From positions 1-61,847 of the IMG/VR virus record IMGVR_UViG_3300048587_000332: 61,847 nt of DNA; one strand, 5' to 3'. A program made the translations under genes and the position numbers. Every line of letters begins with the position of its first letter. Position 1 is the first letter of the stretch. This DNA is from a virus (Duplodnaviria; Caudoviricetes). This document shows, piece after piece, positions 3,714-57,971 of the stretch. The notes under the pieces are model-generated. The model saw only the letters and a program-made list of their open reading frames with translations. It searched no databases and was not told where the DNA came from.

Positions 3714-3798
3714 TAAACCGCAGGACAGGGGACCTGGCGGTCCCGCTGTCGCTGTGGTGGTCTACAACAAGTTTGCCGCACTTCGCGCACAAATGCAA
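3714..3798 (-). ncRNA. Promoter + hairpin small-RNA unit E1
   Basis: TTGCAT-17-CAAACT, then TGTTGTAGACCACC and a hairpin ACAG-C-GACAG-C-GGGACC(GCCA)GGTCCC-CTGTC-CTG. Confidence 0.55.
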
Positions 3799-3948
3799 GG
3801 GCTTTTGAATCAAAAGTTCGTTAAAACTTTTTAATGCAAGCCGAAGGCACTTTACCCTTGAACAGGGCGCAAAGCGCCTATAATATACCTATAGAAGCTG
3901 CCGGCGCAGCGGCCTTACGGTCAATCCCTGAAGAGAAGGAGGTTCTGG

Positions 3949-4137
3949 ATGAAGCATGTAGATTGGTTACAAATTCCCCATCCAACAACCGGGCAATTGT
4001 GTGCCGTTGAAATTCTAGGTGATTCTGACGGCTACTATTCCCGGACGGAATACCCGTTCGAAGAGGAAATAATGGGGCCATTTACGTCCCCACGGGAGGT
4101 ACAGGAGTATCTGTGGGCGCTGTACGGCAGATCGTAG
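3949..4137 (+). CDS. Hypothetical protein
   Basis: AAGGAGGT SD; ends ...GPFTSPREVQEY. Confidence 0.65.
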   Translation: MKHVDWLQIPHPTTGQLCAVEILGDSDGYYSRTEYPFEEEIMGPFTSPREVQEYLWALYGRS

Positions 4138-4164
4138 CCGCAAAGTGCGCTTGAGGGGGAGCAC

Positions 4165-4420
4165 TAACGCTCCGAAGTAACGTTAACTTAACGTTAACGC
4201 CGGAGTTAACATGCCATTTAACGCGAAGAAAAGGAGAACACCTTCGGTGTTTCGTGGCGCAGCCACGAAATTGTAGCCGTATGACTACTACCTCCGGGGC
4301 CGAGCGTAAGCGGAAGGCCCCGGTCAGTATACAGTATAGGTATACTTTCATATTTGTACTGTCCTATACTCCCTTACGGGAGTATAGGTATAACTATAGT
4401 AGTATATAGTATATAGCAAG
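4165..4420. other. Candidate replication origin or control region
   Basis: Clustered GTTAAC/AACGTTAAC palindromes, TATA-rich tract and 11-bp inverted repeat at 4363-4388 at the start of the replication arm. Confidence 0.4.
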
Positions 4421-4466
4421 TTGAGTGCCAAGCTGCTCCGAAGGAGCAGAGAAAGAGAAGGAAAAA

Positions 4467-4769
4467 ATGCTTTCAGTTGGAAACGTGAGACACACCCGTC
4501 TCAAAAACGGAGAAGAGTGCCTCTACTTCGATGTGACTTTTAAGTTTGCTTCAGGCAAAACTTTGCTTGTGAAGGGCTTTCAGTTGTTTCGCGCAGCGGT
4601 GCACCCGCCTAAGTCGCGGGACAAGATAGGTGCCTATTGGCCTGTTTTTTCTCTGCCTGACTGGGCAGAAGCGGAAATCTGTGCTAACCTACGTTCAATG
4701 GGCTTGGAGGCGAAGCATCCGAACGTAGCATTTCCGCCTTCGGCGGAAGAGGAGGTCCAATGGACCTAA
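4467..4769 (+). CDS. SpoVG-like nucleic-acid-binding protein (putative)
   Basis: FDVTF...LLVKGFQL....V.PPKS.....YWPV pattern resembles the SpoVG fold. Confidence 0.45.
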   Translation: MLSVGNVRHTRLKNGEECLYFDVTFKFASGKTLLVKGFQLFRAAVHPPKSRDKIGAYWPVFSLPDWAEAEICANLRSMGLEAKHPNVAFPPSAEEEVQWT

Positions 4770-5476
4770 CAACGATTGACCTCTCGAAAGGCGCTTACAC
4801 AGTGCGCGTTCCGCGCAAAGAGCGCAGCTTCTCAGCTTCGCTAGACGACTGGACCTTCGAACTAGGCGCTTTCATGTGGCTTGAGGGGCTTTTCGACGAA
4901 GATGCGGCCCTACAAGGCCGCTCCACGATGAAGCACAACCTCATTCTGACGGCTCCTAGCGGAGCGCAGGCGCTCTTTGAACACATCTGCCTGTCGGCAG
5001 AAGGGCTGTACTTTGACTACATCCCCCATTCGTGGCAATCGGCCCTGGCCGATTGGGAAAAGCGCATAGGGGAGGTTTACCTCCATTTGGTCGAAGACCA
5101 AGGCATGTTCGAGGAAAGCTACACCGCTGCGCGGTGGGCTTCTTCCGTACAACAGATCGCTAGTAGAGGGTTGCCTCGCAAGAAAACGAACTTCGTTGAA
5201 GGTGCCCCCGTCCAACGACTTCATCGGTTCTTTCAACGCTGCTTCCTAGCGGACGACAAAGGGAAGCCGCTTTCAGGGCATCTTCGCTGGTTTACTAAAG
5301 TACTGGCGGAGGACAACTCGGCGGACTACGGAGACCTCATCTGTCTACACGACGAAGGGGCTAAAGAGTTTCGGCTCTTGTCCCATTCTCAAACGCTTCT
5401 ATCAAAGGAAGCGGTCGAGCAGTTCAAACTTTCGGTGGATGAGGTGCGGTTTTTCTTAGAAGAGTTGGAGGATTGA
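4760..5476 (+). CDS. Hypothetical protein (238 aa)
   Basis: GAGGAGG SD; long ORF. Confidence 0.75.
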   Translation: MDLTTIDLSKGAYTVRVPRKERSFSASLDDWTFELGAFMWLEGLFDEDAALQGRSTMKHNLILTAPSGAQALFEHICLSAEGLYFDYIPHSWQSALADWEKRIGEVYLHLVEDQGMFEESYTAARWASSVQQIASRGLPRKKTNFVEGAPVQRLHRFFQRCFLADDKGKPLSGHLRWFTKVLAEDNSADYGDLICLHDEGAKEFRLLSHSQTLLSKEAVEQFKLSVDEVRFFLEELED

Positions 5477-5532
5477 CTCGTAGCTAAACTAGTTATTAAC
5501 GAATGGTACAATGGAAGTAGGAGATATCTTTC

Positions 5533-6201
5533 ATGTCCATTCACAAAGCTAGGTATGGCTCGGTCGAGATGCTTCGGGAGCACTGTCCCGACTGCGGGAG
5601 GATTTCCTTGATCCAAGATGGCAAGTTTCTCTGTTGTGACTTGCCGGTAGGGACTTCTGCTGCCGAGGTCAAAGCTGTGAAACAGATGATTGCTTTGCCT
5701 CGCAGACGTAAATTACCGCCTGCTTCGGCTCTCCAGCGTAGACTGGAAGCACAGAAGCATCAATGCTTCTACTGTGGGCAGCCTTTCGGCACGCCCTACT
5801 GGAGTCGAGATCGGCTGTGCTTTACCCGAGTAGAATGGGATCACATGGTTCCGTTCATCTACTCACACAACAATCAACTTGAGAATTTCGTCGCTTGTTG
5901 CCAAGTATGTAACCATAGTAAGGGCAGCAAGATGTTCGACACACTCACGGAGGTACGTCGTTATGTCGCAAGAAAATGGGCCAAACTCGAATACGAGTGT
6001 CCTTCCCCCGAAGAAATGCAAACACTGTCAGACCTCTTTTCAGCCGAACAGATACTGGCAGGACTTTTGCTCGACCAACTGCCGGGTGAAACACTGGCAC
6101 CTGCTGAAACGGCCTTTACTCCTTACGCCGACGGAACTATCGAAATTGCTCCAGAATCCAGCGAATCGTTCTATTCTGACGAGACTACACCAGCAGGCTA
6201 A
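5533..6201 (+). CDS. HNH endonuclease
   Basis: CFYCG...EWDHMVP...N...N.VACCQVCNHSKG; own promoter TGGTACAAT at 5504-5512. Confidence 0.85.
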   Translation: MSIHKARYGSVEMLREHCPDCGRISLIQDGKFLCCDLPVGTSAAEVKAVKQMIALPRRRKLPPASALQRRLEAQKHQCFYCGQPFGTPYWSRDRLCFTRVEWDHMVPFIYSHNNQLENFVACCQVCNHSKGSKMFDTLTEVRRYVARKWAKLEYECPSPEEMQTLSDLFSAEQILAGLLLDQLPGETLAPAETAFTPYADGTIEIAPESSESFYSDETTPAG

Positions 6202-6319: not shown

Positions 6320-6320
6320 C

Positions 6321-8553: not shown

Positions 8554-8645
8554 TTGCCTTCGGCAGCGAAGCTGTGGTAGACTAGTAGTGCAACCACCCG
8601 GAGAGCGGCGGATTCCGTGCGGGCGGTTCCGTCGTTTTCCTTTTA
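8554..8645 (+). ncRNA. Promoter + hairpin small-RNA unit E2 (variant)
   Basis: TTGCCT-18-TAGACT (TG-extended), AGTAGTGCAACCACCC, hairpin GGAGAGCGGCGGA...TCCGTCGTTTTCC, then TTTT. Confidence 0.45.
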
Positions 8646-8671
8646 CGTTTGGTTTCTGTTATACTGCGTTT

Positions 8672-22528: not shown

Positions 22529-22694
22529 CGCCGTAGGCGCTAAGCTGAAGGTGTGCTAAGGCACTAATTCAAATGAGCCGCAGGCTCGGAAAGGAAGTCC
22601 TTATAGCCTGTTACTTTGTCACATATCGAGCGAATTGAGAATTTTGCCTGCGTTTGGCCCTCCGCTTGATACCCGGAGGGCCTTTCGCTTTTTA

Positions 22695-22760
22695 TGCTAT
22701 ACTAGTTGTAGACCAACCCCGGAAGAGGCAGTGCCGCGAAAGTGGCCTGCCTTTTTCGTT
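22695..22760 (+). ncRNA. Promoter + hairpin small-RNA unit E3
   Basis: TGCTATACT-AGTTGTAGACCAACCC, hairpin CGGAAGAGGCAG-T-GCCGC(GAAA)GTGGC-CTGCCTTTTTCG. Confidence 0.6.
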
Positions 22761-22797
22761 TGCATTTTTCGCTTTTCTGTGCGAAACTGGTTTTGTG

Positions 22798-23040
22798 ATG
22801 ACGAAAGCGGAACTCATAAAGTCTTTGGAGGGAGTGCCCGATTTGGCAAGGGTCTATTATGTGGACCGCCGCGAGCTAGGCGCTCAAACGAGAATTCGTT
22901 ATCATGACGGAGAACTTTGTGAACTACGGCGCGTGAAAGTGCAGAGCACTTCGTTCGGAGCCGTCAATGTTGTCGTTTTCGGCGAAACGGTACGCGAAGT
23001 ACTCGTAGACGTCAAAGAACTAAAAGTCATTCTCACATAG
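22798..23040 (+). CDS. Hypothetical protein
   Basis: MTKAELIKSLEG.PD.A.V start typical of small phage proteins. Confidence 0.6.
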   Translation: MTKAELIKSLEGVPDLARVYYVDRRELGAQTRIRYHDGELCELRRVKVQSTSFGAVNVVVFGETVREVLVDVKELKVILT

Positions 23041-23909: not shown

Positions 23910-23990
23910 CAGAAAACACAAAAGGACAGAGCCGATGGGTGTCGGCGTCTGTCCTCTCGTGGGTTTGGGGTCTACAACAAGCATAGCACA
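23910..23990 (-). ncRNA. Promoter + hairpin small-RNA unit E4
   Basis: TGCTATGCT-TGTTGTAGACCCCAAAC, hairpin CACGAGAGGACAGA-C-GCCGA(CACCCA)TCGGC-TCTGTCCTTTTGTG. Confidence 0.6.
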
Positions 23991-23991
23991 A

Positions 23992-26409
23992 TTAAGGCAA
24001 CCGATCAACAATCTTCTGCCGATTTTTCACACCCTTGAACTTCTCGGCCATTGCGTCCAATAAGGTTTCTCGTTGGCCTTCTCCTTCCAGGCTTCGAGCA
24101 GTTTCTCCGGCACCAACCCGCGCCCCCGAACGGAGCATAGGGATTATAGTATTCATACGAGTGCCTATTGCCCGAGTTTCTTCGGGAGAAGCCTGCATGT
24201 ATCGCTTCACTGCGCCGGAGGGGTCGGCTTTCAACAGTTCCCGGAAACGCGCTCCGATGCCGGCCAAACGTCCGGAGAGCCAGATAGTGGTCTTATTCTT
24301 CTCTGCAATGGTGTTCAGCAACTCCTCATTGCGCAAGAGCACAGAAAGTCCCAAAGCCGCATCTGCTTGGTCGTCCGGTACTTGGGTTTCTCCCGTTAGA
24401 GTCTTCAGGTATTCCCAAGCGCGGCCTGCTGTCTTGGCGTCCTTGCCTTTGGGAGCCGCCAATCGTTCCACGATTTCCGGCGTCAACTTCTTGTCGCGAA
24501 CCTTGGACAGCAACTCTTGAATCATCAACTGACGGGTGCGGGGCAGATCTTTAGGAGCCACTTCTTCAATCGTCTTGAACAGTTCGTCCAAAGACGTAGT
24601 AATCTCCTGGACTTTCGTTCCGCCCAGTAACGGCTGTGTCAGTTCGTCAGCATCCGGCAGTGTGCCGGGAAGTCCTCGGAGTTCGCGGGTTTTACGCAAC
24701 GCATCAAACTTGCCAAGTTTCTGCTTGAACAGTGCAACATTTCGTGCGTTTGCTACCTGTGCTTGTTCTTGCCTGAAAGCATTCTCTGCTGCGATTTTGG
24801 CATTAGCTTCTTCCGTGCGCCGAACAGCCTGCTGCCGCATAGGGGCTACGCGCTGTTCATACGCGGTATTGTCCGCAAGGTCGAACTTAGGAGCTTGTCC
24901 CGGAATAACAGTTTCGACTGTCTCCCCCGGCACTTTAGTCTCGTCAATAAGAGCGCGGATACCTGGGTCGGCTTCCTTGCCGACTTTATCCACTAGCTTT
25001 TGGAGGGTACCCTCCCCTCGTCCGTACTTAACAGCGTGTTCAAGTACGGCAACGGCTGAAGTCTTGTCAAAGTTAGAGGCTTCGGCCAACTCTTCCGCAG
25101 CGGCATCAATAGATGCTCGGGAAGGGAAGTTCTTAGTATTGCTGAAGAGCTTATGCTTATCGGCGACTTTCAGGACAGCATCGACACCTTTGGCGGTGCC
25201 GAACTTGGCATCGTTCATGAAGTCGAATGCCTGGAAAGCGGTCAGTGCTTCGGCGCTGTACTTCTTGTTTTCCACCACCTGCTTGCGCAGGTTGGTATAC
25301 ATCTTATCGGCGTCAAAGCCAACCCCCAAGGCGGCGCGAGATGTAGAGGCAGTGCCCGGTGCGATGGTGGTACGACCCCCACCGATAAACCCTTCCACCA
25401 CTTCGTCGGGAGTTCCTGGCTTGATAGGGCTAAAGCCTCGCTCGAAGGTAGGTGTTTCCTTGAGGGGTTTGATAGTGGGCCGCTTCGGCAAAGGCGCAAC
25501 TTGTACGCTGCCCTTAGCGGTTTCGTCCAAACCTCGGATATACTGAAGCACGTCATCTGTAACGATACTTCGCGGCGCTGCGGTAGCTGCGGCAAGTCCC
25601 GGTTGTCCCAAGGTCTGGTCAATCTTGGCGAGCAACTCGGGGCGGTCCTGTAACATCTGAACAACTTCTTCGTTGGGGATAGGGTCTCGGCCCTCAGGAC
25701 GAAACTTCTTCCGGGCCTGGAAAAGCATATCCTCGGAGATTTCTTTTCCGGGTCCTGGCAACATCCGAGTCAACCAGGGCAAAGCACTATGCAACAGTCC
25801 CGCAGTACCACCAAGCACTCCTTGTAGGGCGGGGTTGGCGTCCTCATCGCCAGCCGCTTTACGCGCAACTCCCTCCGCTCCGCCCAGAAGCATATTTTTG
25901 AGAGTTTGCTTAATAAGGCCGCCGCGCCCCACTGGGACAGCATTGACAGCAGCACTTGCTAAATCGGCAGGAAACGATTCCGTGGAAGTGAAGGGAGCAG
26001 ATGCGAGCATAGACAGACCAGATCCTTTGAAGGGTCCGGGCAGCAAGGCGGTCGCCGCCGCGCCTCCTATGCCCATCGCTGTCTGAACCGCTGCGTCTTT
26101 TGGAGGAGCCGAACCAGTTAGGCCGAAGATTGAGAACGGTTTGGCAATGTGATTCTGTGTCAACTCCGCCATAAATCCTACGTTCTTGTCGTAGTATTCT
26201 TTGAAGATCTTCTCTACCGTAGCTTCGTCGGCCTCTGCGATATCAGAACGCCCCACATCTCGTACTAAGAATTGTTTCTTGGCCTGAGTAGGCATGAGGC
26301 TGTACTTCTTCAACTCTTGCCGGAACTCCTGCAAAGGCCGATTTGCTTCCTCGGCTTCCTTTTGGGAAACGAGCAAAGATCCGCCGAAAGCGCCGAGAGG
26401 TAGAGGCAT
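23992..26409 (-). CDS. Putative internal virion / DNA-ejection protein (805 aa)
   Basis: Large, helical, A/G-rich; third of three large genes after the tail module. Confidence 0.6.
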   Translation of the reverse strand: MPLPLGAFGGSLLVSQKEAEEANRPLQEFRQELKKYSLMPTQAKKQFLVRDVGRSDIAEADEATVEKIFKEYYDKNVGFMAELTQNHIAKPFSIFGLTGSAPPKDAAVQTAMGIGGAAATALLPGPFKGSGLSMLASAPFTSTESFPADLASAAVNAVPVGRGGLIKQTLKNMLLGGAEGVARKAAGDEDANPALQGVLGGTAGLLHSALPWLTRMLPGPGKEISEDMLFQARKKFRPEGRDPIPNEEVVQMLQDRPELLAKIDQTLGQPGLAAATAAPRSIVTDDVLQYIRGLDETAKGSVQVAPLPKRPTIKPLKETPTFERGFSPIKPGTPDEVVEGFIGGGRTTIAPGTASTSRAALGVGFDADKMYTNLRKQVVENKKYSAEALTAFQAFDFMNDAKFGTAKGVDAVLKVADKHKLFSNTKNFPSRASIDAAAEELAEASNFDKTSAVAVLEHAVKYGRGEGTLQKLVDKVGKEADPGIRALIDETKVPGETVETVIPGQAPKFDLADNTAYEQRVAPMRQQAVRRTEEANAKIAAENAFRQEQAQVANARNVALFKQKLGKFDALRKTRELRGLPGTLPDADELTQPLLGGTKVQEITTSLDELFKTIEEVAPKDLPRTRQLMIQELLSKVRDKKLTPEIVERLAAPKGKDAKTAGRAWEYLKTLTGETQVPDDQADAALGLSVLLRNEELLNTIAEKNKTTIWLSGRLAGIGARFRELLKADPSGAVKRYMQASPEETRAIGTRMNTIIPMLRSGARVGAGETARSLEGEGQRETLLDAMAEKFKGVKNRQKIVDRLP

Positions 26410-30692: not shown

Positions 30693-30782
30693 CCTACTAC
30701 TATTTTACCATTGCGGTCCGGGCGGGCCCGTGCTATCCTGTCTATGTAAGTCAATCGGCGCAGTGCGCCAGAGGAGGATTTT

Positions 30783-31569: not shown

Positions 31570-31649
31570 TGCTACACTAGTTGTAGACCCCCAAAAACAC
31601 AGAGAGGCGGCTACCGTGCCGCCCTTTGTGCATTTTGTAGGTGCTTTTT
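31570..31649 (+). ncRNA. Promoter + hairpin small-RNA unit E5
   Basis: TGCTACACT-AGTTGTAGACCCCCAAAAA, hairpin CACAGAG-A-GGCGGC(TACCGT)GCCGCC-CTTTGTG; no co-directional gene follows. Confidence 0.65.
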
Positions 31650-38955: not shown

Positions 38956-39021
38956 AGAATAAGCAGCATAGCTGCTACTTCTATTTTACCATTGGCCTTC
39001 GGCATCTAAATGGAAGGATAT

Positions 39022-40509: not shown

Positions 40510-40558
40510 ACTTTTATTTTACCATGCCTTCGGCAAGTGATTATCCGCACTAATAAAC

Positions 40559-41666: not shown

Positions 41667-41749
41667 AGAAAGGGTTCCTCCTACTTATTATTGTAACATA
41701 CGCAATTTAGCATTAAGGATAAATAGAGAGGGGCTTGTACCCCTCTCTA

Positions 41750-44847: not shown

Positions 44848-44886
44848 CGCTACTTCTATTTTACCATTGGCGCTACGCGCCATTAG

Positions 44887-44975
44887 TGGTACACTAGTTG
44901 TAGACCCCCGTGGCGCTTCGCGCCACACAAACGGACGAGAGGGCGGACGCCAATCTGCCCTCTTTTCTGTAGGTG
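44887..44975 (+). ncRNA. Promoter + hairpin small-RNA unit E6
   Basis: TGGTACACT-AGTTGTAGACCCCC, extra hairpin GTGGCGC(TTC)GCGCCAC, then GAGAGGGCGGA(CGCCAA)TCTGCCCTCTTTT. Confidence 0.6.
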
Positions 44976-48289: not shown

Positions 48290-51200
48290 CTAATTGACAA
48301 TTACATTCTGCGTCGCTCTCGCCAGCACAGCCGACGAAGCATTCAAATACTCGATCAGCACCGTTTGCCCGCCTGCGCGAAAGTCGCTGGTCACGCTGCA
48401 CGCCACCGCCTGGCAGGTATTCGTCACCGCCACGCCGCTCGCGTTGGTCGCCGTGATGCGGATGCGGTCGCCATACGCCAGCGGAGATCCCACCTGCACG
48501 GTCAGCGTGCGATTCTCCGCGGGTGCAGGGCCTCCTAGTCGCGCCGCTGGCCAGGTTGAGCCGCCACCCATGCCGTAGGCTTGCCCGAGCGCCTTTTGCC
48601 GGGCATCGTCGCCGGTTGCGCCGCCATCCTCCGGCTGGGCCATATAGGCGACATATTTGCCATCACCGGCCAGAGGCGCGGCATATCCGGGCCGGGAATA
48701 AATCAACCGATAGTATTCGTCGCCGCGGGTTTTATCGGCTGGATTGAGCGTGTGCAGATAGTAGGCCGTGAAGGCGTCAACGCCCTCCATGGAGTAATCG
48801 CGCTCCACGTTGTATGGTCCTGCAAGATCGAAGTCGCAGATCGTCTTTACCGTTGGGTCTCGGGGGCCGCAAGTAGGCATCGAGTCGAAATACGGCTGTC
48901 CCAAACTTAGAGGATCCAAATTGTCGAAGTTCAACGTGAGCAGACTCCCCACCAGTGTCCAATAGTTCGCCGCCATGGTTGGTTCGTCGGCTTCGAGGGC
49001 TTTCGCCGCCGCCACGTAAGCATTGGCGCGAAGTTCGTCCATGAACGGCTGCCGCGCCCACGGCGAATATATGCTGTATTTGTTAGCAGCAAGCAATCGC
49101 CGATAGACGTTCCCGCCGCTGGTATCGCCCGCGAACGGCTTGTGTAGGCGAATCTGGGTACCGCTCTCCACCGTGCAGGCGTAGGCGTCGTTCAGTTCGA
49201 ATGCGCGTGGCGATTTCACCGCGCCCGCGCTGGTCACTCCCTCGAAGTGCTGGATCGGATACCCCACGTCGCCCTCGACGTAGAATCGCGTAATCGCCCC
49301 GGCATCGCCTCGCCACGGGAATTCGAGCGTGGCGCTTGTGGCGGTTGGGGTTGGCGTTCCCGCGATCCGGTCAATCTCCATGTGCGGTTGCCCACCGCGC
49401 AAGCCAACCAGCATGATGTTTTTCCCGCCCGTCCCCACCCAGTTCGTGCCCGTGCCTGTGAGCACGGTCCCACCCACGTTCACCGTAGCCGAGCCGCCCG
49501 GCTGGAACGGAGTGCCGCAATAATCGCTCCCGATGTTTGGGCCGGAATAGAGCGTCATCAGATCCGAGCCGTTGGTAGCTTGCCAAACTCGGGCGGTGTC
49601 TTGAAAATTCGGATAGAACGAATAATATCCGCCATTCGGGTAGCGGTTCGGAATGGCCTGGAGATTATAGTGCGTAATCAGCTTCGCACGGAAGTCCGAC
49701 CGAGTAGTTGGATTCGGGTGATATTTAGCGATGATAGCCGCCGCCCAAACACAATAGGCATCTTCGCGTTGGTCGTTTGGCTGGTCTCTCGTGACATCCG
49801 TGAGACACCCAAGGATGCGATTCGTAATCATGGGCCAGGGGTCCTTCCCCTCCCAGATTTCCGGCATCAGTGTGGCCGCGAGTGTGACGCTTACGGTTGG
49901 CTCGGAGCGTCCCACCCACTGAGCGAAATAGGGATTACGAAATTGAACCTTGGCCATATACTGAGCCGCCCGCAGCATGGCGATGTCTCCGCTTCGATAC
50001 CAAGCTCGAAAATAAGCAAGACCAGTATCGTAGTAACCAATCGACATAGCATTGGATGCCGTCCAGTTCCCCATGTTACCTTGCTGTCCGAAAAACAGAC
50101 CCCATCGAATCCCTGGAGCGGCTACGGTGATATCTCTCTCGGATTCCAAGTATGGTTCGGCGGTGATTTCCGTATCGCTGACGCAGCTTCGCACTCGCTG
50201 AGCTAAAGGTCTCGGAATTCCGCCAACTCCCCCATAGGCCGGAGAAACGACATCGGGCACGAGCCAAAACACGGCATCCACCGGAGACAACGCTCCGGGG
50301 GTTCCGCCGCAAAACAGGCTCAGCCATTGAGTGCCAACGCCATGCAGCGTGCGCGTATATGGCCACGTGGGATTCACTTCGTCCCACCAGATTGTCCCGG
50401 CAATCGGAACGCCCAGTATGTCGTCGCGCAGGTTCGGCAACTGCACGTATCCGCCATTGACCTTATAGTCCATCGCCAAGTCATGCGTGAGCGTGTACTG
50501 CGTTTGATCCGCGTAGGCCCAGGGATTTTGCCCACGCACATGCTGAGGCCCTAGGAGATCGTCCAGCCGGGCGTCCGGGTAAATCACGATGCCGTTGTCG
50601 TCGTAGGCGACCGCCCCAATGTCGGTGTCAAGCGAAGCCTTTTGTCCGGTTGAGTCCGTCACGGCCAGACGGAACTTATATGAACCGAAAACCAGGCCCG
50701 TGAGCGTGGGCGTGCAACTGTTGCGGTTGTCGAATACGGCTTGCGACGGGCCATCCAGTTGCTGCCAGAGACACGCAACATCGGCGGAAGCATCCACCAT
50801 CGAGTAGCTATTGGACACAAGTTGCCCAGGATGACCGGCGCGCAGCGGGATGAAGTTCGCCCAATAGGGCGTGTTCGCGGAAGTGGGCTTCGAGTAGGCA
50901 AGTTGCGCCGGGCTCGACTCGAACGTCAATCCGGTGATGCTATTGAGGTTGCGCCCGTTGCCGCTACTATCGTTGCCGTTGCCGTCAAACTTCAACTCCA
51001 GGCCATCGCCCGAATCCGCCGTGACGGGAGGGCGGGAGCGCAGCGGAACCAGAGTCGAAAAGACGCGCAGGAAGCCCAGCTTCGCGCCCCCGTCGGGGAT
51101 CGGCCAGAGTTCTCCGCCCGCGTTGCCCCAGGCGTTCGCGCTGGTAATCGCGAGCCGGTCGATGAAGTAGTTGCTGCCATCGACTTCCCATATCTCGCAA

Positions 51201-51553
51201 CTGTAGGTCATCGCGGCGTAGTCGCGCTGAATCCGCACCAGGGAATTCGTTCGCCCTTCCATCGCGATGATGCAGGGCTCGGCGGGGGAAACGGAATCTC
51301 GCGAAGTCTGAATCCAAAGCCCCTGCCCACCGTAGGGCGTAGCGGTGATTTTCAGGCCGACGCCAAGTAGCTTGACCAGATCGCTCGTGGCGGTTGGAGC
51401 GGAGAAGCCGTGAAGTTGAAACTCCACGCGCCAGCTTGCGGTCGTGGCGAGGTTAGGATCGGCGAACGTGCGCGTCGAGGGAATCGGCCAAGAGAGCGAT
51501 TGCCCACCGAAGAGCGAAGCAGCGAGCAAGCAAGTCAAGAATAGTACACGCAT
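48290..51553 (-). CDS. Large tail-associated / carbohydrate-active-like protein (1087 aa) with signal-peptide-like N-terminus
   Basis: LamG-like FDGNGNDSSGNGRN, PKD-like WQQLDGP...YKFRLAVTD, helical C-terminal region. Confidence 0.6.
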   Translation of the reverse strand: MRVLFLTCLLAASLFGGQSLSWPIPSTRTFADPNLATTASWRVEFQLHGFSAPTATSDLVKLLGVGLKITATPYGGQGLWIQTSRDSVSPAEPCIIAMEGRTNSLVRIQRDYAAMTYSCEIWEVDGSNYFIDRLAITSANAWGNAGGELWPIPDGGAKLGFLRVFSTLVPLRSRPPVTADSGDGLELKFDGNGNDSSGNGRNLNSITGLTFESSPAQLAYSKPTSANTPYWANFIPLRAGHPGQLVSNSYSMVDASADVACLWQQLDGPSQAVFDNRNSCTPTLTGLVFGSYKFRLAVTDSTGQKASLDTDIGAVAYDDNGIVIYPDARLDDLLGPQHVRGQNPWAYADQTQYTLTHDLAMDYKVNGGYVQLPNLRDDILGVPIAGTIWWDEVNPTWPYTRTLHGVGTQWLSLFCGGTPGALSPVDAVFWLVPDVVSPAYGGVGGIPRPLAQRVRSCVSDTEITAEPYLESERDITVAAPGIRWGLFFGQQGNMGNWTASNAMSIGYYDTGLAYFRAWYRSGDIAMLRAAQYMAKVQFRNPYFAQWVGRSEPTVSVTLAATLMPEIWEGKDPWPMITNRILGCLTDVTRDQPNDQREDAYCVWAAAIIAKYHPNPTTRSDFRAKLITHYNLQAIPNRYPNGGYYSFYPNFQDTARVWQATNGSDLMTLYSGPNIGSDYCGTPFQPGGSATVNVGGTVLTGTGTNWVGTGGKNIMLVGLRGGQPHMEIDRIAGTPTPTATSATLEFPWRGDAGAITRFYVEGDVGYPIQHFEGVTSAGAVKSPRAFELNDAYACTVESGTQIRLHKPFAGDTSGGNVYRRLLAANKYSIYSPWARQPFMDELRANAYVAAAKALEADEPTMAANYWTLVGSLLTLNFDNLDPLSLGQPYFDSMPTCGPRDPTVKTICDFDLAGPYNVERDYSMEGVDAFTAYYLHTLNPADKTRGDEYYRLIYSRPGYAAPLAGDGKYVAYMAQPEDGGATGDDARQKALGQAYGMGGGSTWPAARLGGPAPAENRTLTVQVGSPLAYGDRIRITATNASGVAVTNTCQAVACSVTSDFRAGGQTVLIEYLNASSAVLARATQNVIVN

Positions 51554-51567
51554 CGCGTTAATCCCCT

Positions 51568-53757
51568 TTATCGTGTGAGCGTGCTCATGCCTGCATAGAA
51601 GTCGATATCAATCGACCGCGCCGCCGCTGAGTTGGTCTTCACGTAGATGCCCGGCGAAATAGCGGTATCGGGCAGCGTCGAGTTGATGTTCGAGGATGTG
51701 GTGGAATTGACGCGGATCTTCACATAGCCGGACGTGTCGCTGATGATCCGCACCTTCACCCACGCATTTGCCACAAACGCCACGCCAGAGTCCGTACGCG
51801 TAGGAGTCGATCCATACGATGTGCAGAACATCCAGTTCGTATCGATGGCGGAATCGTAGGCGAGGTAGATGCCTTCGTCAGAATCGAAGTCGCCTTTGAG
51901 AAAGCCAATCGCGTACTTGCCGCCCGCGTCCACGGGGCGTACAACGAACAAGTGATCTTGAGCACCATTGGCCGCGTCCGTATAAGTGAACCCGCCGGAG
52001 GTCCCTCCGTTACCTTCCAGCCCCAGGAATTGCCAGTTGCCGCTGGTAGCCGTCGTGGTGATACGAAAAATCCCCGGATGATTAGACTCAGAGGCCACCA
52101 CTCCATAAGTGCCTGTGGCTGACCCAGTGGATCGCCACTGCAACTCGCTCCAAAATCCTGGGTTCGCGCCGGTGCCGCCGCCGAAGAAGTCGTCGCGCAG
52201 GAACACCTTCGTTTGATCCATCCAGTCGGTAGACATGCCACCACCGCTATCACCTTGAGCCGTCCAGGTGTTCGTGGCTGTGCAAACAAGCCACTGCGAA
52301 CTAGCTGTTGCGTCGGTGTCAATGAACGTCTCTCCCACGGCGCACGTGGCGGGAGGCGTGGTCCCGGTTTTCGAGGGCTTGGTCGATGTCTTCCCGGAAA
52401 GATCGAGTGTAGAGCTTAATGCAAACGTCGGATTGCCGCTCACCCCGTCCCCATTCGTCACGCCGATTTCATTGGATGTGCCCGTGAGGGTTCGGGCTGT
52501 GGATGTGTTGAGCGCCGTGCGTGCCATCATCCCATTCGCACCAGGATCGCCCATGCCGCCGCCTCCAGAACCAACCACTCCCATACGCCACACGGAGCCG
52601 TCGTAACGCAACGGTACCTGTCTGCCAGCCACAAGCGCAGACGCGCCAGGGTCCGTTGTGCCATCCGATTGCTTCACGTTTCTGCTACCGAGGGCATCCA
52701 CGTTGAGCGTGATCGCGCCCGCGCTCGAAGACACGTCCGGCTCAAACTCAATCACCGCGCCATCGGTATACGCCGTGAGCGTGGGCGACATCGCGCACGT
52801 GTAATTCGCGCCGCTTGCGCTGGCTGGCACACAACGCAAATCGCTTCCGGCTTGCGCTTGCGCCCGGCCAAGCATCACGGCTGTGTCCGCAGCAAAAGTC
52901 GGATTGCCACCGACACCGCTGCCATTCGTGACTACGACGCCTGTCCCCGCTGTAAGCGTCCGTGCCGTGGTGGTATTGAGCGCCGTGCGCACAACCACGC
53001 CGTTCGCGCCGGGATCGCCCAGGCCGCCGCCACCACCCGAACCCCCGAGCGCCACATAAGCGCTCCCGTTGTAGCGGCAGAGAGCCGCCGCCGATCCGCC
53101 GCCCGTGGTGCAATCCGAGGCGTTCGCCGCGTCGGTAAACACTACAACCAGCCCCGTATAGGGCGATGCCGGAGGACTCGCGATGGTATGGGACGGAATC
53201 GGCAGCACCCATGCGGAGTTGGTTCCGTCCGTGCCGAGCACGTACCGAGTCTTGCCGCTCTGACTAGGGACGAGGGCATCAATCGCCCCTTGCGCCGTCG
53301 TCTGGCCCGTGCCGCCCTGGGCAATTGCCAGTTGCCCGCTGGTGATATCTCCCGCCGCGTGCGTATGCGACGCCGCGGCCTTGCCGTCGATCTGGCCCTG
53401 AATGCCGGACGTAACTCCCGACAAATACCCCAACTCCGTGGAGGTCACACTTGACACCGCTACATTCCCGCTACCGTCGCTCTGCAAAGCGCGGCTAGCG
53501 GTAAGCCCACTAATAGCGCCGCTTGAAAGAGTCCACGTATTCGTCGCCGTACACACATAAACATTCTGCCCAGCAGTCGCGTCCGAATCGAAAAACGCAT
53601 CCCCCACGCTACAGGTAGCAGGCAAAGACGTGCCAATCACCCAAGGTTTGATAAATGCGTGAGTCGAAAAATCCGCGTTCCGGGACTGTGATTTGAGATC
53701 CAATTGCTGACCGAGCGCCAGCGAAACGGCAAAAAGGAGGGCAAAAATGTAGCGCAT
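51568..53757 (-). CDS. Tail fibre-like protein (729 aa) with duplicated modules
   Basis: VTSTELGYLSGVTSGIQGQID, HTHAAGDI and QGGTG fibre motifs; two PATC.VG and two GDPGANG modules. Confidence 0.7.
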   Translation of the reverse strand: MRYIFALLFAVSLALGQQLDLKSQSRNADFSTHAFIKPWVIGTSLPATCSVGDAFFDSDATAGQNVYVCTATNTWTLSSGAISGLTASRALQSDGSGNVAVSSVTSTELGYLSGVTSGIQGQIDGKAAASHTHAAGDITSGQLAIAQGGTGQTTAQGAIDALVPSQSGKTRYVLGTDGTNSAWVLPIPSHTIASPPASPYTGLVVVFTDAANASDCTTGGGSAAALCRYNGSAYVALGGSGGGGGLGDPGANGVVVRTALNTTTARTLTAGTGVVVTNGSGVGGNPTFAADTAVMLGRAQAQAGSDLRCVPASASGANYTCAMSPTLTAYTDGAVIEFEPDVSSSAGAITLNVDALGSRNVKQSDGTTDPGASALVAGRQVPLRYDGSVWRMGVVGSGGGGMGDPGANGMMARTALNTSTARTLTGTSNEIGVTNGDGVSGNPTFALSSTLDLSGKTSTKPSKTGTTPPATCAVGETFIDTDATASSQWLVCTATNTWTAQGDSGGGMSTDWMDQTKVFLRDDFFGGGTGANPGFWSELQWRSTGSATGTYGVVASESNHPGIFRITTTATSGNWQFLGLEGNGGTSGGFTYTDAANGAQDHLFVVRPVDAGGKYAIGFLKGDFDSDEGIYLAYDSAIDTNWMFCTSYGSTPTRTDSGVAFVANAWVKVRIISDTSGYVKIRVNSTTSSNINSTLPDTAISPGIYVKTNSAAARSIDIDFYAGMSTLTR

Positions 53758-53843
53758 AGTGGGGATGTGCCTCTCCCTCTATTTTACCAAATGCAAAGGG
53801 AGGGCTAACGCCCTCCCTTATTTAGAATTCTAAGCTACTCTTT

Positions 53844-54212: not shown

Positions 54213-54221
54213 AGCGCCTCC

Positions 54222-54503: not shown

Positions 54504-54546
54504 AGTGCAGGTTCCTCCCTCTTTCTATTGTAACATTCAAAATCTA

Positions 54547-54612
54547 TGCTAAACTAGTTGTAGACACCCCCGACAGCCGCGAGCGTCCGCGCTCCGGTTG
54601 TCTGGGGTTTTT
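54547..54612 (+). ncRNA. Promoter + hairpin small-RNA unit E7
   Basis: TGCTAAACT-AGTTGTAGAC, hairpin ACCCC-C-GACAGCCG-C-GAGCG(TCCG)CGCTC-CGGTTGTC-T-GGGGT, then TTTT; no co-directional gene follows. Confidence 0.65.
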
Positions 54613-54643
54613 GAGCATTTGGGGCTTTGTCTGCGTGGTTCAC

Positions 54644-54850
54644 TTATTTGGCGGGGGTCGGAGGCCGAAGAATGGCCAGCAGAGCGCCGCCGAAACCCGC
54701 GGCAATCGAGCCGACCTGGCCCTGAAGCTGCTCGCTCTCCGGCACCCAAACCTTGATCGCCACTTCCGCCGCGAAAAACACCAGACAAAGGGCGCTCATC
54801 GTAAAAATCTTAGCGCCTTCGCCTTCCAACCACTCGGTAAATTTACTCAC
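54644..54850 (-). CDS. Two-TM holin-like protein
   Basis: Two hydrophobic segments; in the lysis cluster. Confidence 0.5.
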   Translation of the reverse strand: MSKFTEWLEGEGAKIFTMSALCLVFFAAEVAIKVWVPESEQLQGQVGSIAAGFGGALLAILRPPTPAK

Positions 54851-55082
54851 GAGCTTCGCTCCCTTTCGGCGGCTCCTCGTTGATGGCGATGCTGGCGTTG
54901 GCCCACATCACTGCCTGTTGAATGTGTGTCAGAGCAGTTGACTTCTCCCGCGATTCGGGACACGCATCCTGCACTAAGTGCGCGAACTCTTTGGCGGCTT
55001 GCCTAATCTTGACGTACCTTTCCGGCTGGTCCCCAAAGGGGGCGCGGTAGGTAAAAATTCGATTGATCTGTTCGTTAGTCAC
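54843..55082 (-). CDS. Acb2/Tad1-family signal-sponge-like protein
   Basis: FTYRAP...Q.ERY..IR...CPESREKSTALTHIQQAVMWANASIA. Confidence 0.7.
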   Translation of the reverse strand: MTNEQINRIFTYRAPFGDQPERYVKIRQAAKEFAHLVQDACPESREKSTALTHIQQAVMWANASIAINEEPPKGSEARE

Positions 55083-55620
55083 TGATTAGCTCCTTCAAAG
55101 GTGTTTCCATGATCGTCTTGCGGTCGAGACCGCAGCGCTCGCCCACGAACTGCGCGTAAGTGTACGGCTCGTTGCCGTCCGAAGACGGCGCGTACACCTG
55201 GAACATGCCGAGCATCGAAGGCGACTTCCCATTCGTGTACTTCCCGTCAATGTACTGGCCGATCAGTGCCTCCAACACCCTGCGCCCCTCGGCGCAAGCC
55301 GAACGGACGCGCTCTGCGGGGCGTTTTGCCATTTCGCTTAGAATTTTATCTAAGGTTTGGCGGCGGACCGCTTTGGACGCCGACCGGGTGGGACGGCGCG
55401 GCATGAGAGGCTCTGTAGCTCCCGTGCGGTTCAACTCCCATTGATAGAAGTCGATGTAGCCGTAAGCGGTCGGGTGCTTGGCGCTCCAGCGGCGAACGTT
55501 GCCGGGGTTGCAAAGCTGCTGCGGGACGGTCGGAAAGTCGGGGTGCCCCGGCTTGGCGTGGTACCCCTCCTTAATTTCGATGGCATCCGCCATCAGCGAA
55601 ATAAGATCTTGTCGGGTCAT
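55075..55620 (-). CDS. Putative endolysin (lysozyme-like)
   Basis: AI...EG, CNPGNVR, GYIDF, YAPSSDGNEP..YA.FV. Confidence 0.55.
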   Translation of the reverse strand: MTRQDLISLMADAIEIKEGYHAKPGHPDFPTVPQQLCNPGNVRRWSAKHPTAYGYIDFYQWELNRTGATEPLMPRRPTRSASKAVRRQTLDKILSEMAKRPAERVRSACAEGRRVLEALIGQYIDGKYTNGKSPSMLGMFQVYAPSSDGNEPYTYAQFVGERCGLDRKTIMETPLKELISD

Positions 55621-55639
55621 TGGCGTGCTCGTCGCGCCG

Positions 55640-55915
55640 TTAAGCGGCGCTCTTTTTGCGAAAGGTGCCGATGGCATTGAAAACGCCAACAACAATGTCA
55701 ATGATAGGGGTAGCAAGGTTGACCACGAAATCGGCAGAGAACTTGCCCTTCACGCCAGGGATAGACCCAACTACTTCAACGAGGGATTTGAGCGCGTCGA
55801 GCGCAAGCTGCTTCTTCTCAGACCCAGGAAGCTCCTCGGTTTCGACGGTCTTAACAATGCGCTCCAGGAGTTCCCAGAGAACGGGGATCAAAGCGAAAAT
55901 CTGCAAAAAGGCCAT
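55640..55915 (-). CDS. Holin-like / lysis-associated protein
   Basis: PGSEKKQLAL...IIDIVVGVFNAIGTF with a basic tail. Confidence 0.55.
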   Translation of the reverse strand: MAFLQIFALIPVLWELLERIVKTVETEELPGSEKKQLALDALKSLVEVVGSIPGVKGKFSADFVVNLATPIIDIVVGVFNAIGTFRKKSAA

Positions 55916-55950
55916 AGGTTCAGTCTCCTACAACCATTTTAGCATTTCGG

Positions 55951-56310
55951 CTATCCGCCTTCGGCGGGGTCGTAGTATTCAACTCGAATGGTATCGCCTT
56001 CTGATAGTTCTTTATTGATACGGGCCTCGATCTCTTCGGGCGTCTCTACGAGGGGCTGCCCCATGCGGCGAGCACATTCCACCTTATGCCACTTCTTGAA
56101 CGCCTCGGAGTTGACCAGCCGCAGGAAAGCGTTACGTTCATTGGTCTTCTGGTCGCGTGAGTCGCGGGCTTCGCCGCGGGCACCCGAGGCTTCGTGGATA
56201 AACCGAACCCCGGACTCCACCTTGTTCTGGTTCTGCCCACCTTTGCCGCCCGAACGGAAGGTTTGGCGCACTAAATCCTTTTTGGTCACCGAGAAAAGCA
56301 AACGCTTCAT
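55951..56310 (-). CDS. Stand-alone GGQ peptide-chain-release-factor-like protein (RF-1 domain)
   Basis: FRSGGKGGQNQNKVESGVR...SRDQKTN...AF.RL. Confidence 0.9.
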   Translation of the reverse strand: MKRLLFSVTKKDLVRQTFRSGGKGGQNQNKVESGVRFIHEASGARGEARDSRDQKTNERNAFLRLVNSEAFKKWHKVECARRMGQPLVETPEEIEARINKELSEGDTIRVEYYDPAEGG

Positions 56311-56324
56311 ATTATCCTTTCACC

Positions 56325-56412
56325 TAAACGAAAAACGCCGGATGCGTACATCGCGGCGTCTCTCGTGAGGAGGGTCCACTACTAGTGTGCCACTTCGTGG
56401 TACGAATGTCAA
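56325..56412 (-). ncRNA. Promoter + hairpin small-RNA unit E8 (variant)
   Basis: TTGACA-17-CACACT-AGTAGTGGACCCTCCTC, hairpin ACGAGAGACGCCG-C-GATG(TACG)CATC-CGGCGTTTTTCGT. Confidence 0.55.
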
Positions 56413-56600
56413 GCTATTTCTTCGGCTTCGCCGAAGGAACTAACACGGCCAGGATAGGTAACGCGGCCATGGTACGTCGGGTCATTCGTCTACCTGGATT
56501 TCGCGGGGACGGGCTTGCCGATGTGTTCTGGTCCCCCTCCACCCGTCGTATTCTGCCATCGTGCCGTCCAGGTCCACACCGAGCCACCCGTTGAAGTCGC

Positions 56601-56843
56601 TCATCTCGCCCACTCCTCTCTGCCGCACTTGCGGCACTTGCGAACGTAAATTCGGTAGCTGCGCTCTCGGTTGTTCAACGCTGCCTCTTGGGGTGTAACC
56701 GATCTCGCCTCTGCGTACAGCATCGGCGCTGACCAGTCATGCTCCACGCCCACCTTGCCCTTGCACCAGCGGCGGGTATCTTTCTTGCCGGGGATGGGCT
56801 TCGGCGTTTCCGGTGCCGGGGTGTTTCGAAGATCTGACCTCAT
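56601..56843 (-). CDS. Small Cys/His protein
   Basis: WCKGKVGVEH...CRKCG. Confidence 0.55.
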   Translation of the reverse strand: MRSDLRNTPAPETPKPIPGKKDTRRWCKGKVGVEHDWSAPMLYAEARSVTPQEAALNNRERSYRIYVRKCRKCGREEWAR

Positions 56844-57074
56844 CCCCTGTCCTCATGAATGCACACAGGGTCAATGCGAGCCGTGCCTCGGGTGCGTAGG
56901 TTCGGGTCTTCATTATAAACGTCGTAGGTTAGATAGACCATAGAAGACCTCCTCGAAAAATGCCCCGATTCGTCGCTACCTTCGGGGCAACAGATATCTC
57001 ACATGGGAGCGGTTGTGCACAACCCCGACTATCGCCAACCTTGCAAGCGTTAAGCCGAGGCTATTGGCGAATCT

Positions 57075-57149
57075 TGGAGCCACCCGCAGGATTCGAACCC
57101 GCATCTGGTCGCTTACAAAGCGTCCGCTCTACCGTTGAGCTAGAGTGGC
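57075..57149 (-). tRNA. trnT: tRNA-Thr(TGT)
   Basis: GCCACTC/GGGTGGC acceptor stem, GCTC/GAGC D-arm, TTTGTAA loop, GGTTCGAATCC, encoded CCA; TTGACA-17-TATGCT promoter upstream. Confidence 0.92.
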
Positions 57150-57304
57150 GAAACTCTGTCGGGTACGTCGCCCCGCACTTTCAGCATAACGCGTCGAAGG
57201 CTCGCTGTCAATACCTTTCCACTATGGAACTATTGCGCCGAAGGCGCATGGTAGAATAATAGTAGGATTGCGCATCCTTATACTTCTAGCTAGGAGGCCA
57301 AACT

Positions 57305-57841
57305 ATGGCTAATAATGTGTTGCTTCTCTCTAACGCAGCCGCGCCTGGAACCGCGCTGCTTTTTCCTCTGGTAGTTGCCAAGCAGGGCAATGTTACGGCG
57401 GACTCTGCCGACAATCCAGCGGGAGTATTCCCTTTTGACGTGGAGATTGTCAAATTTGTCGGTGGAGTGCTCACCAATGGCGTTGATGGCACTGACCCAC
57501 TCTCTATGCAGTTCGATGTGAAAAAGAGGGCGGCTGCGGCTACCTCCGGTACCTCGGTCCTGACGACCAAGGCATCCATCGGAGGTCAGACTGGGGGTAC
57601 AGGCATTTCCGCGGCGGCAGGTACGGGTTATCGGCACACCAATGCAGATGCCACTGGCGTTGTAGCTGCTGTCCTAGACAGCACTAAAACGGTTGTGGCG
57701 GCGGGATCTATGATTTCTGTGGATTTCGATATTACTCGGACTACGCCGGAAACGGAAATTGTAGGGCCGTTCGCTATCGTGTGGGTGGCACCTCTGGGCG
57801 GGGCCGACACGCGTGCTAATGGCGATTTCGTGGGCCTTTAG
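57305..57841 (+). CDS. Stand-alone beta-rich (structural-like) protein
   Basis: Own promoter TGGTAGAAT at 57249, AGGAGG SD and own terminator. Confidence 0.75.
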   Translation: MANNVLLLSNAAAPGTALLFPLVVAKQGNVTADSADNPAGVFPFDVEIVKFVGGVLTNGVDGTDPLSMQFDVKKRAAAATSGTSVLTTKASIGGQTGGTGISAAAGTGYRHTNADATGVVAAVLDSTKTVVAAGSMISVDFDITRTTPETEIVGPFAIVWVAPLGGADTRANGDFVGL

Positions 57842-57863
57842 TGCCTTCGGCACTAACTAACTG

Positions 57864-57892
57864 AAAGGGGAGCCGGGAGGCTCCCCTTTTTT
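57864..57892 (+). terminator. Intrinsic terminator
   Basis: AAAGGGGAGCC-GGGA-GGCTCCCCTTTTTT. Confidence 0.85.
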
Positions 57893-57893
57893 A

Positions 57894-57971
57894 TGTTACA
57901 CTGGTTGTAGACCAACCACGCAGAGGGCGGGGCCAAGGCCGAGAGGCTTTGGTTCCGCCTTTTGTGCGTTT
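57894..57971 (+). ncRNA. Promoter + hairpin small-RNA unit E9
   Basis: TGTTACACT-GGTTGTAGACCAACC, hairpin GCAGAGGGCGGGGCCAAGGCC(GAGA)GGCTTTGGTTCCGCCTTTTGT; insulated by an upstream terminator; no co-directional gene follows. Confidence 0.7.

Follow-up and report, generated by a model that had tools for sequence, protein, structure and literature searches.

A repeated box in an uncultured phage genome

The window analyzed here is the whole of IMG/VR virus record IMGVR_UViG_3300048587_000332 (Caudoviricetes), 61,847 bases long with 55% G+C, and our subject is a family of nine dispersed units in which a short promoter box is followed, in eight of them, by a hairpin and a U tract. The gene map of the window was drawn with a simple gene caller of our own. 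Plus-strand genes at ca. 4.4 to 22.5 kb have replication and DNA modification functions, their products including (by Pfam and PHROGs) a family A DNA polymerase, methyltransferases, a PD-(D/E)XK nuclease, AAA_24 and AAA_25 proteins, and two HNH proteins. Minus-strand genes at ca. 24 to 54.5 kb are structural, with portal, large terminase, and tail-like proteins among them. The units had been pointed out in a first-pass annotation, made by a model from the sequence alone, as a candidate multicopy small-RNA or attenuator system.

The 9-mer GTTGTAGAC occurs in seven exact copies, at 3760 and 23970 on the minus strand and at 22705, 31580, 44897, 54557, and 57904 on the plus strand (units U1, U3, U2, U4, U5, U6, and U7, respectively). 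Only 0.24 copies were expected, and none of 100 shuffles reached seven, so that the earlier count of at least seven copies, with few expected by chance, holds. A position weight matrix (PWM) built from the seven sites scored them at 32.6 to 43.5 bits, and the next best site, at 8569(+), at 12.7 bits. Two variants that had been noticed at 8585 and about 56380 are real: GTAGTGCAAC at 8585(+) (U9v) and GTAGTGGAC at 56374-56382(-) (U8v) both have the usual layout, with GTAGTG replacing GTTGTA, and each is unchanged in the sister phage compared below, which brings the family to nine. A literature search with the 9-mer returned, among the matches listed, studies unrelated to phages, mostly eukaryotic or animal-virus work in which the sequence presumably matched primers.

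In all nine units, the box lies 1 nt downstream of a -10-like hexamer whose second base is A and whose sixth is T; seven of these hexamers begin with T and two with C. TG stands at the extended -10 position in seven of the nine, and three (3760, 23970, and 56380) have a -35-like hexamer at 17 bp, in agreement with the first description of the promoters. The units thus show the marks of a sigma-70-type promoter, namely, a TAnnnT-type hexamer together with TG or with a -35 element at 16 to 18 bp. The conserved stretch exceeds the 9-mer: on its upstream side it takes in TG, one base, a TAYACT-like hexamer, and one free base, and on its downstream side C and then a C/A run. The pattern TGNTANNNTNGTNGT gave 9 matches (0.27 expected); seven of them are the units with TG, and the other two are promoters, at 30710(-) and 55944(-), that run directly into genes.

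The box is composite, its GTAG being a general start-site core common to this phage's promoters. Because this core is also used by a second promoter class (class B, below), GTTGTAGAC is not a single unit; the features peculiar to the nine are their type of hexamer, a GTT (or GTA) discriminator, and the AC after GTAG. The arrangement of a -10 element, 4 nt, and GTAG recurs just 5' of start codons, and for this reason, the transcription start (+1) of the units is predicted at the A of GTAGAC; in the two variants, it would be a G. The earlier placement of +1 at about AGAC fits this shared layout.

Behind the predicted start, eight of the nine units have the same organization: after the initial AGAC come 10 to 16 unpaired nucleotides, C and A only, then a hairpin of 13 to 22 bp and a U tract. 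In these eight, the G+C-rich hairpin and U tract lie on the transcribed strand, as in an intrinsic terminator. The C/A-rich leader and long U-ended hairpin ascribed to every unit at first pass therefore stand for eight and fail for U1, which has a 125-nt structured leader with three hairpins and no U tract. All nine predicted RNAs fold better than each of 200 shuffles (z scores of -3.5 to -7.4). A genome-wide 46-nt scan for hairpins followed by U found its eight strongest sites at -23 to -31 kcal/mol, and these are six unit hairpins plus the ordinary terminators directly before U2 and U7; U5 (-19.7) and U8v (-17.4) fell outside the top eight.

The hairpins are strand specific. In all 16 cases examined, which are eight units in each of two phages, the RNA of the box strand folds more stably than its reverse complement, and 22 of the 147 pairs in the eight window hairpins are G-U, bearing out the many G-U pairs that had been seen on the transcribed strand. 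Loops include GAAA, GAGA, UACG, and UGCG. A single bulged base on the 5' arm, 4 to 6 pairs below the loop, is present in five of eight hairpins (U, C, A, C, and C) and not in six with C in four, as had been claimed. The nine hairpins could not be aligned by sequence (MAFFT, 14 RNAs), only the promoter box of ca. 20 to 25 bp being alignable between copies; because of this, a covariance model of the family would describe only "a hairpin," and we compared pairs of orthologues instead. Rfam matched no unit: at gathering scores, it returned only a tRNA-Thr, and at an E value of ≤1, it gave three matches, none on a unit, which upholds the view that no known RNA family is involved.

Along the genome, the units are arranged as follows. 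U1 (3639..3798, minus strand) has its -35 at 3798-3793, a 17-bp spacer, the -10 at 3775-3770, the box at 3768-3760, and the predicted +1 at 3763, and its long leader (z, -4.3) extends up to the gene at 3132-3638(-); the orthologue lies at 50207(+) in the sister phage. U9v (8575..8650, plus strand) comprises a TG-extended -10 at 8575-8583, the variant box at 8585-8594, a predicted +1 at ca. 8590, and a hairpin with U tract, giving a predicted RNA of ca. 58 nt (folding energy [ΔG], -28.1; z, -3.5). Downstream of it, a separate extended -10 at 8657-8665 stands 6 nt 5' of the ATG at 8672, a position suited to leaderless initiation. An ordinary terminator closes the replication operon at 22650..22690(+) (ΔG, -24.0), and its U tract abuts the promoter of U2 (22695..22765, plus strand), which has a TG-extended -10 at 22695-22703, the box at 22705-22713, +1 predicted at 22710, a 10-nt C/A leader, a bulged hairpin with GAAA loop, and a U tract. 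The predicted U2 RNA is ca. 56 nt long (ΔG, -28.8; z, -5.6), and a small gene lies downstream at 22813-23040(+). U3 (23910..24008, minus strand) is placed directly 3' of the stop codon of an 805-aa gene and opposes the convergent gene 23050-23739(+). Its -35 is at 24008-24003, its TG-extended -10 at 23988-23980, its box at 23978-23970, and its predicted +1 at 23973; with its hairpin and U tract, it would give an RNA of ca. 64 nt (ΔG, -31; z, -7.4).

The remaining units are as follows. U4 (31570..31640, plus strand; TG-extended -10, box at 31580-31588, predicted +1 at 31585, hairpin, and U tract) follows the stop of 30783-31559(+) and has a predicted RNA of ca. 47 to 56 nt (z, -6.6). A convergent minus-strand gene ends at 31648, and a U-rich run follows the hairpin on the minus strand too. 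U5 (44887..44969, plus strand; TG-extended -10, box at 44897-44905, predicted +1 at 44902) has a first hairpin and then a terminator hairpin, with a predicted RNA of ca. 68 nt (z, -5.8); it sits upstream of a ClpB-D2-like AAA+ gene (to 46070), back to back with the portal promoter. U6 (54547..54616, plus strand; TG-extended -10, box at 54557-54565, predicted +1 at 54562, bulged hairpin, and U tract; RNA of ca. 55 nt; z, -5.7) opposes the convergent genes at 54644-56310(-). U8v (56322..56412, minus strand) has a -35 at 56412-56407, a 17-bp spacer, the -10 at 56389-56384, the variant box at 56382-56374, +1 predicted at ca. 56377, a bulged hairpin with UACG loop, and a U tract (RNA of ca. 56 nt; z, -5.0), and lies upstream of the RF-1-domain gene 55951-56310(-). 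U7 (57894..57967, plus strand; TG-extended -10, box at 57904-57912, predicted +1 at 57909) comes after the ordinary terminator of gene 57305-57841(+) (57860..57887, plus strand; ΔG, -24.8), whose U tract abuts its promoter. The U7 hairpin of 22 bp, with GAGA loop and U tract, ends a predicted RNA of ca. 59 nt (ΔG, -41; z, -6.4), and a convergent minus-strand gene ends at 57970.

The third-codon periodicity of substitutions between the two phages, together with conserved frames, places the genes after U3, U4, U6, and U7 on the opposite strand. The predicted RNAs of these four units end 0 to 170 nt from the stop codon of the convergent gene and would thus be antisense to the 3' ends of those genes. 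The first-pass annotation had listed three units without a codirectional gene downstream; those three are confirmed, and the count rises to four with the 23970 unit. That unit also breaks the accompanying statement that the other six precede accessory genes, and the gene at 8672, after the 8585 unit, has a separate promoter. The 57904 unit does directly follow a separate terminator, as had been observed, and so does the 22705 unit, so that only its own promoter feeds each of them. Three units precede genes with no other visible promoter: U2, before genes of 75 and 229 codons; U5, before the ClpB-D2-like AAA+ gene; and U8v, before the RF-1-domain gene. This last gene encodes 119 aa, in which Pfam recognizes an RF-1 (peptidyl-tRNA hydrolase) domain (7e-14), and its product resembles ribosome rescue factors of the ArfB type; the sister phage has unrelated DNA at its position.

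Conservation and distribution of the units

Conservation was studied in the sister phage G001, an IMG/VR record of 73,567 bases and the only full sister genome compared. In total, 46,018 window positions aligned with it, at 82.7% identity. All nine units are found at matching places in G001. Not one of the 81 box positions is changed; had the box drifted like the rest, the chance of this would be, by our own arithmetic, 0.827^81, or ca. 2e-7. The hexamers differ at 7 of 54 positions and the spacer bases at 3 of 9. U5 is identical at 129 of 129 positions, and three more fragments of the lineage, with overall identities of 81 to 92%, have its core unchanged as well. U2 differs from its orthologue only upstream of the -10 and at the spacer base.

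Where the hairpins have changed, pairing has been kept. In U7, 6 of 22 pairs are changed on one side, exchanging G-U and A-U, and none is broken. The lower stem of U6 shows one compensatory and one one-sided change in 14 aligned pairs, and its upper stem is a different one in G001, with the same bulged C five pairs below the loop. U8v has one stable tetraloop exchanged for another, and the remaining changes in the units lie in loops or preserve pairing. The clear substitutions in the leaders are exchanges of C and A in four of four cases, which means that the composition of the leader is kept rather than its sequence, and no seed is conserved.

We looked for relatives of the units with a 14-base box search, which yielded 100 stretches in viral contigs and 120 in genome contigs (220 loci). 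Among these, PWM scores above 30 bits with a hairpin behind the site were restricted to a single lineage (loci L001, L007, L071, and L009/L064, the last pair being G001); one further site above 30 bits appeared chance-like. Searches with the portal and terminase recovered the same lineage and nothing further, and a helicase-based metagenome scan gave two near-identical fragments. A terminase profile search retrieved 80 loci from distant relatives and, against genome contigs, one short unrelated match. The exact box occurs in 0 to 1 copies in five complete distant relatives, not above the reversed control, and the 65.9-kb genome of one distant relative, G004, has no promoter-hairpin units. When we scanned for an extended -10 with a strong terminator within 50 nt, there were eight units in the 61.8 kb of the window (seven of them caught by the TG-dependent scan), none in the 65.9 kb of G004, and nine in 1.08 Mb from the loci of 76 relatives. 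The lineage is present in wastewater, activated-sludge, and biofilm runs. It has no close cultured phage: an initial DNA search returned no match, and the terminase of the nearest cultured phage is at most 28% identical.

A second promoter class and other features of the genome

The class B promoters consist of TG, one base, a TAAAAT or TACAAT hexamer, four bases, and usually GTAG. They stand 2 to 30 nt before structural genes and are fully conserved in G001. On the minus strand, we found them at 54532 (54523-54535), 53786 (53777-53789), 44863 (44854-44866), 41695 (41686-41698), 40521 (40512-40524), 38988 (38979-38991), and 30707 (30696-30710), all with a TG-extended -10, and a class B-like site of the same layout lies at 5504-5516 on the plus strand. 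Several are only 2 to 10 nt 5' of the start codon, and at 40521, the A of the ATG takes exactly the place that the A of GTAG has elsewhere. To judge by this spacing, several class B sites would give leaderless or near-leaderless messages, a possible clue to the type of host. U6 is back to back with the class B promoter 54535-54523(-), and the -10 elements of such pairs are ca. 27 bp apart at U5 and ca. 18 bp apart at U6.

The promoter at 55944(-) (55930..55944) is the tenth with the unit type of box: an extended -10, 1 nt, and GTTGTAG. It has no terminator and runs into the ribosome-binding site of gene 55640-55915(-), and the link between box and hairpin therefore holds in 8 of 10 cases. At 60320-60331(+), an intergenic stretch before 60563-60811(+), conserved in G001, reads TACACT, one base, GTAGT; it lacks both TG and a hairpin but may still belong to the family as its eleventh promoter.

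Further features of the window are recorded here in their own right. Tandem repeats of 15 bp occupy both ends of the record (1-173, ca. 11 copies; 61511-61803, ca. 19 copies; 78 to 82% matches) inside open frames that run off the ends, and the same repeat is found in G001 at 44.3 to 44.5 kb; the record is probably a circular or permuted assembly cut within a pentapeptide-repeat gene. The intergenic DNA at 4178-4198 and 4320-4420, 5' of the first conserved early genes, contains a direct repeat of a 10-bp palindrome-like unit, TATAC/GTATA-rich runs, and a perfect 11-bp inverted repeat at 4363-4388, and may be an origin or operator region. The tRNA-Thr (anticodon TGT) at 57075-57149(-), the sole ARAGORN match, lies amid the plus-strand open reading frames (ORFs) of the 56.9- to 57.8-kb block. 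Within 48589-53407, a 1,087-aa protein with a PKD-like domain and most of a 729-aa protein have no DNA-level match in G001 or in locus L007 and are probably swapped host-range or tail proteins. Among the relatives, some large terminases (P0002 and other homologues) reach ca. 1,000 aa and carry intein or LAGLIDADG families (PF14528 and PF14890). Several of the distant relatives L246, L249, L254, L258, L261, and L255 have 4 to 6 copies of a 10- to 12-bp palindrome with a TTTAAA center, and one of this set has 14 copies of a palindrome with an ACTAGT center; these may be dispersed regulatory sites of their own.

Candidate readings: minigenes, cassettes, or attenuators

We are highly confident of the anatomy of the units, given that their sequence organization, strand specificity, conservation, and positions are direct observations. 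As to what they are, we favor, with reasonable but by no means full confidence, the reading that the nine loci are promoter-to-terminator minigenes for the host polymerase, making RNAs of ca. 46 to 68 nt at module borders. The firing of the promoters, the start and stop sites, and the short RNA (or its making) as the selected product rather than a by-product are inferred. The host polymerase would bind these strong promoters unaided, start at the A of GTAG, clear the promoter on a leader unable to pair with itself, and be released at the hairpin and U tract after ca. 46 to 68 nt, within seconds of the start. Each unit would then be a minigene for a short, very stable hairpin RNA. The units would sit at operon ends and module borders, where the same hairpin could end the upstream operon (U3, U4, and U9v) or back up its terminator (U2 and U7), leakage through the terminator, apparently the only route to the accessory genes after U2, U5, and U8v, could allow these a low level of expression, and the RNAs of U3, U4, U6, and U7 could anneal to convergent messages at their 3' ends. 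Any one of these effects may be the one under selection.

Such antisense RNAs have a parallel in the oop RNA of lambda, also short, with its own promoter and intrinsic terminator, and antisense to the 3' end of a convergent gene, as in the layout of U3, U4, U6, and U7. Unlike the units, oop is a single gene with a defined target, and here there are nine paralogues with a common start box, four of them in sense leaders. Intergenic short noncoding RNAs with their own start site and terminators have been described in the lytic Pseudomonas phage LUZ7 (PMC9163698); those form one hotspot of overlapping RNAs of <250 nt and not a dispersed family with a common promoter box.

Several points weigh against the minigene reading. 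Hairpins and leaders vary in sequence from copy to copy and, for U6 and U7, also from one orthologue to the other, and no common seed or binding sequence is visible beyond the 5' AGAC. The U tracts have just 4 to 5 U before an interruption, and termination may therefore be partial. The capsid gene region is present in two metatranscriptomes among the four runs compared, all as assembled contigs, which are unable to show starts, ends, or small RNAs. The promoter rules of the host were assumed to be sigma-70-like, plain insulation of modules needs no promoter before a terminator, and no partner protein or target was found with Pfam, PHROGs, Atlas look-ups, or leader pairing. Moreover, the class B promoter cores are also identical between both phages, and because they are equally conserved, an unchanging box is by itself no proof of a special factor.

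The units may also be compared with the promoter-early stem-loops (PeSLs) of T4-type phages, cassettes of a sigma-70 promoter and a stem-loop that flank orphan genes (PMC2839356, PMC4122927). The PeSL stem-loop lies in the -35 to -10 interval or over the -10 and stops upstream transcription (PMC2839356). As far as these reports describe them, PeSLs resemble the units in being dispersed conserved cassettes with a strong sigma-70-type promoter and a stable stem-loop terminator, intergenic in variable regions, and kept while their neighbors are swapped. On this model, the units would be junction cassettes retained at module borders during gene exchange, with the shared box of ca. 20 to 25 bp serving as short homology for shuffling, the terminators insulating modules, and the short RNA as a by-product. 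This account overlaps the minigene reading rather than excluding it, and we consider it possible, if clearly the less probable of the two. It gains from the placement of the units relative to the DNA that does not align with G001: none of the nine lies within such DNA (29% expected from random 90-bp windows), and U1, U4, and U8v are 6 to 18 bp from a nonhomologous segment, for which the expectation was 3.5% for each unit. Homology at U1 and U8v takes the form of islands, and the RF-1 gene that follows U8v has been replaced in G001. The stretch at 23050-23720, between U2 and U3, is hypervariable, patchy in G001, with several contig joints and ca. 450 bp absent from the metagenome contig L318; contigs of 85% likeness give weak hints at the two borders of U2, where one joint picks up again at 22689 and a single loose end lies at 22761. 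The phage also encodes the PD-(D/E)XK nuclease and the AAA_24 protein. Five of the nine units are within 300 bp of a break, compared with 46% of random windows. On the other hand, U5, U6, and U7 are 0.9 to 2.2 kb from any break, intergenic DNA is near breaks anyway, and no recombinant between two units was seen. The design also departs from that of PeSLs: copies share ca. 20 to 25 bp and not ca. 100 bp, four of the nine have no downstream gene, and in eight of eight, the hairpin stands 10 to 16 nt after the predicted +1 and not upstream of the start, so that the cassette terminates its own transcript. U2 and U7 have, in addition, an upstream hairpin abutting the -10.

Other accounts give the box or the RNA a dedicated partner. 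A phage protein could read the box at the promoter, as Q does at pR', and make the polymerase ignore the terminator, or it could shut the promoters off as a repressor of dispersed operators. An invariant asymmetric box spanning -5 to +4, a terminator within 60 nt of it, and the three units (U2, U5, and U8v) in front of genes with no other visible promoter would all suit such regulated attenuators, which we nevertheless consider unlikely. Convergent genes lie ahead of four of the nine units, U9v has a separate promoter behind it, the structural genes have promoters of their own, and the GTAG part of the box is a general start-site core. In lambda, pR'-tR' is a single copy before the whole late operon, with a sigma-dependent pause element and the Q gene adjacent, and its strong promoter gives a short terminated RNA (6S RNA) unless the polymerase is modified there. 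Here, there are nine copies; the leaders hold no T and thus no -10-like pause element, and neither a Q-family gene nor any antiterminator, sigma, or NusG-like family was found among 50 ORFs searched in Pfam and 30 in PHROGs. The pR'/tR'-like idea of the first-pass annotation is weakened accordingly. The broader search for a regulator, which included two Atlas look-ups and did not extend to every small ORF, also returned no sigma factor, polymerase, antiterminator, or RNA-binding family. The stoperators of mycobacteriophage L5 and the C1 operators of P1 are likewise short asymmetric motifs at many intergenic phage sites; in those temperate phages, they serve as sites for a repressor whose gene is known, whereas here no repressor was found and half of the motif is the start-site core. 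Base-pairing small RNAs acting in trans, with C-rich 5' tails that bind the G-rich ribosome-binding sites of host or phage messages, appear less likely still. A single-stranded 5' tail ahead of a terminator hairpin is a layout common to many small regulatory RNAs, and the U8v tail is of the CCUCC type, but CCUCC is missing from the tails of the other eight, the tails differ between copies and drift between C and A in orthologues, and duplexes of the leaders with phage start regions fell within the range of 200 shuffled leaders for eight of nine, the ninth being a self-overlap artifact. The C-rich anti-Shine-Dalgarno RNAs proposed at first pass are thus not supported. Promoters of a phage-encoded RNA polymerase, like the conserved 20-bp promoter of T7, often followed by a processing hairpin, we consider highly improbable. 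Some 20 bp conserved at dispersed sites and often followed by hairpins recall the promoter and RNase III site pairs of T7, yet the consensus is a textbook TG-extended -10 with, in three copies, a -35 at 17 bp. No RNA polymerase family was found in the 50 Pfam-searched ORFs (including all those of at least 600 aa), no ORF of at least 100 aa has a D.DGD motif, and DxDxD matched only twice, once within an ORF of 302 aa and once close to the end of a virion-protein-like one. The boldest option, that the RNAs are multicopy protein-binding decoys or guides or that a new promoter-bound factor couples initiation to the fate of the terminator, we regard as a long shot on a par with the regulated attenuators. 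As decoys, the RNAs would offer a common shape (a 5'-triphosphate AGAC, a C/A tail free of G and U, and a long hairpin that is bulged on its 5' arm five pairs beneath a stable loop) to a host or phage protein that would be titrated or loaded early in infection.

Several further candidates were considered. An RNA anti-CRISPR, as a solitary repeat unit, appears unlikely, since nine hairpins that differ in sequence do not suit the mimicry of one repeat. The remainder were dropped on general features. As to a likeness of the box to the ends of Cas12a or type II-C CRISPR repeats, the upstream half varies in the manner of a -10 hexamer and precedes the start. The GG and GC dinucleotides of sigma-54 promoters are absent in most copies, and a promoter and terminator account for the fixed one-base spacing to the -10 and for the U tracts better than do Tus/Ter, Chi-like, T7-type primase, or RfaH ops sites or replication origins.

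The promoters of lytic phages are generally taken to serve genes. The nine strong promoters described here, which are under tighter conservation than the genome around them, would instead go to RNAs of ca. 50 to 70 nt or to nothing at all. If the RNAs are made, an uncultured phage lineage from wastewater would offer, in these minigenes, a compact and easily tested family of small RNAs or attenuators. The units would also be natural strand-specific promoter and terminator parts, and the promoter grammar of this lineage (extended -10, four bases, GTAG start, and frequent leaderless or near-leaderless messages) may be of use for annotating its relatives and for guessing the host.

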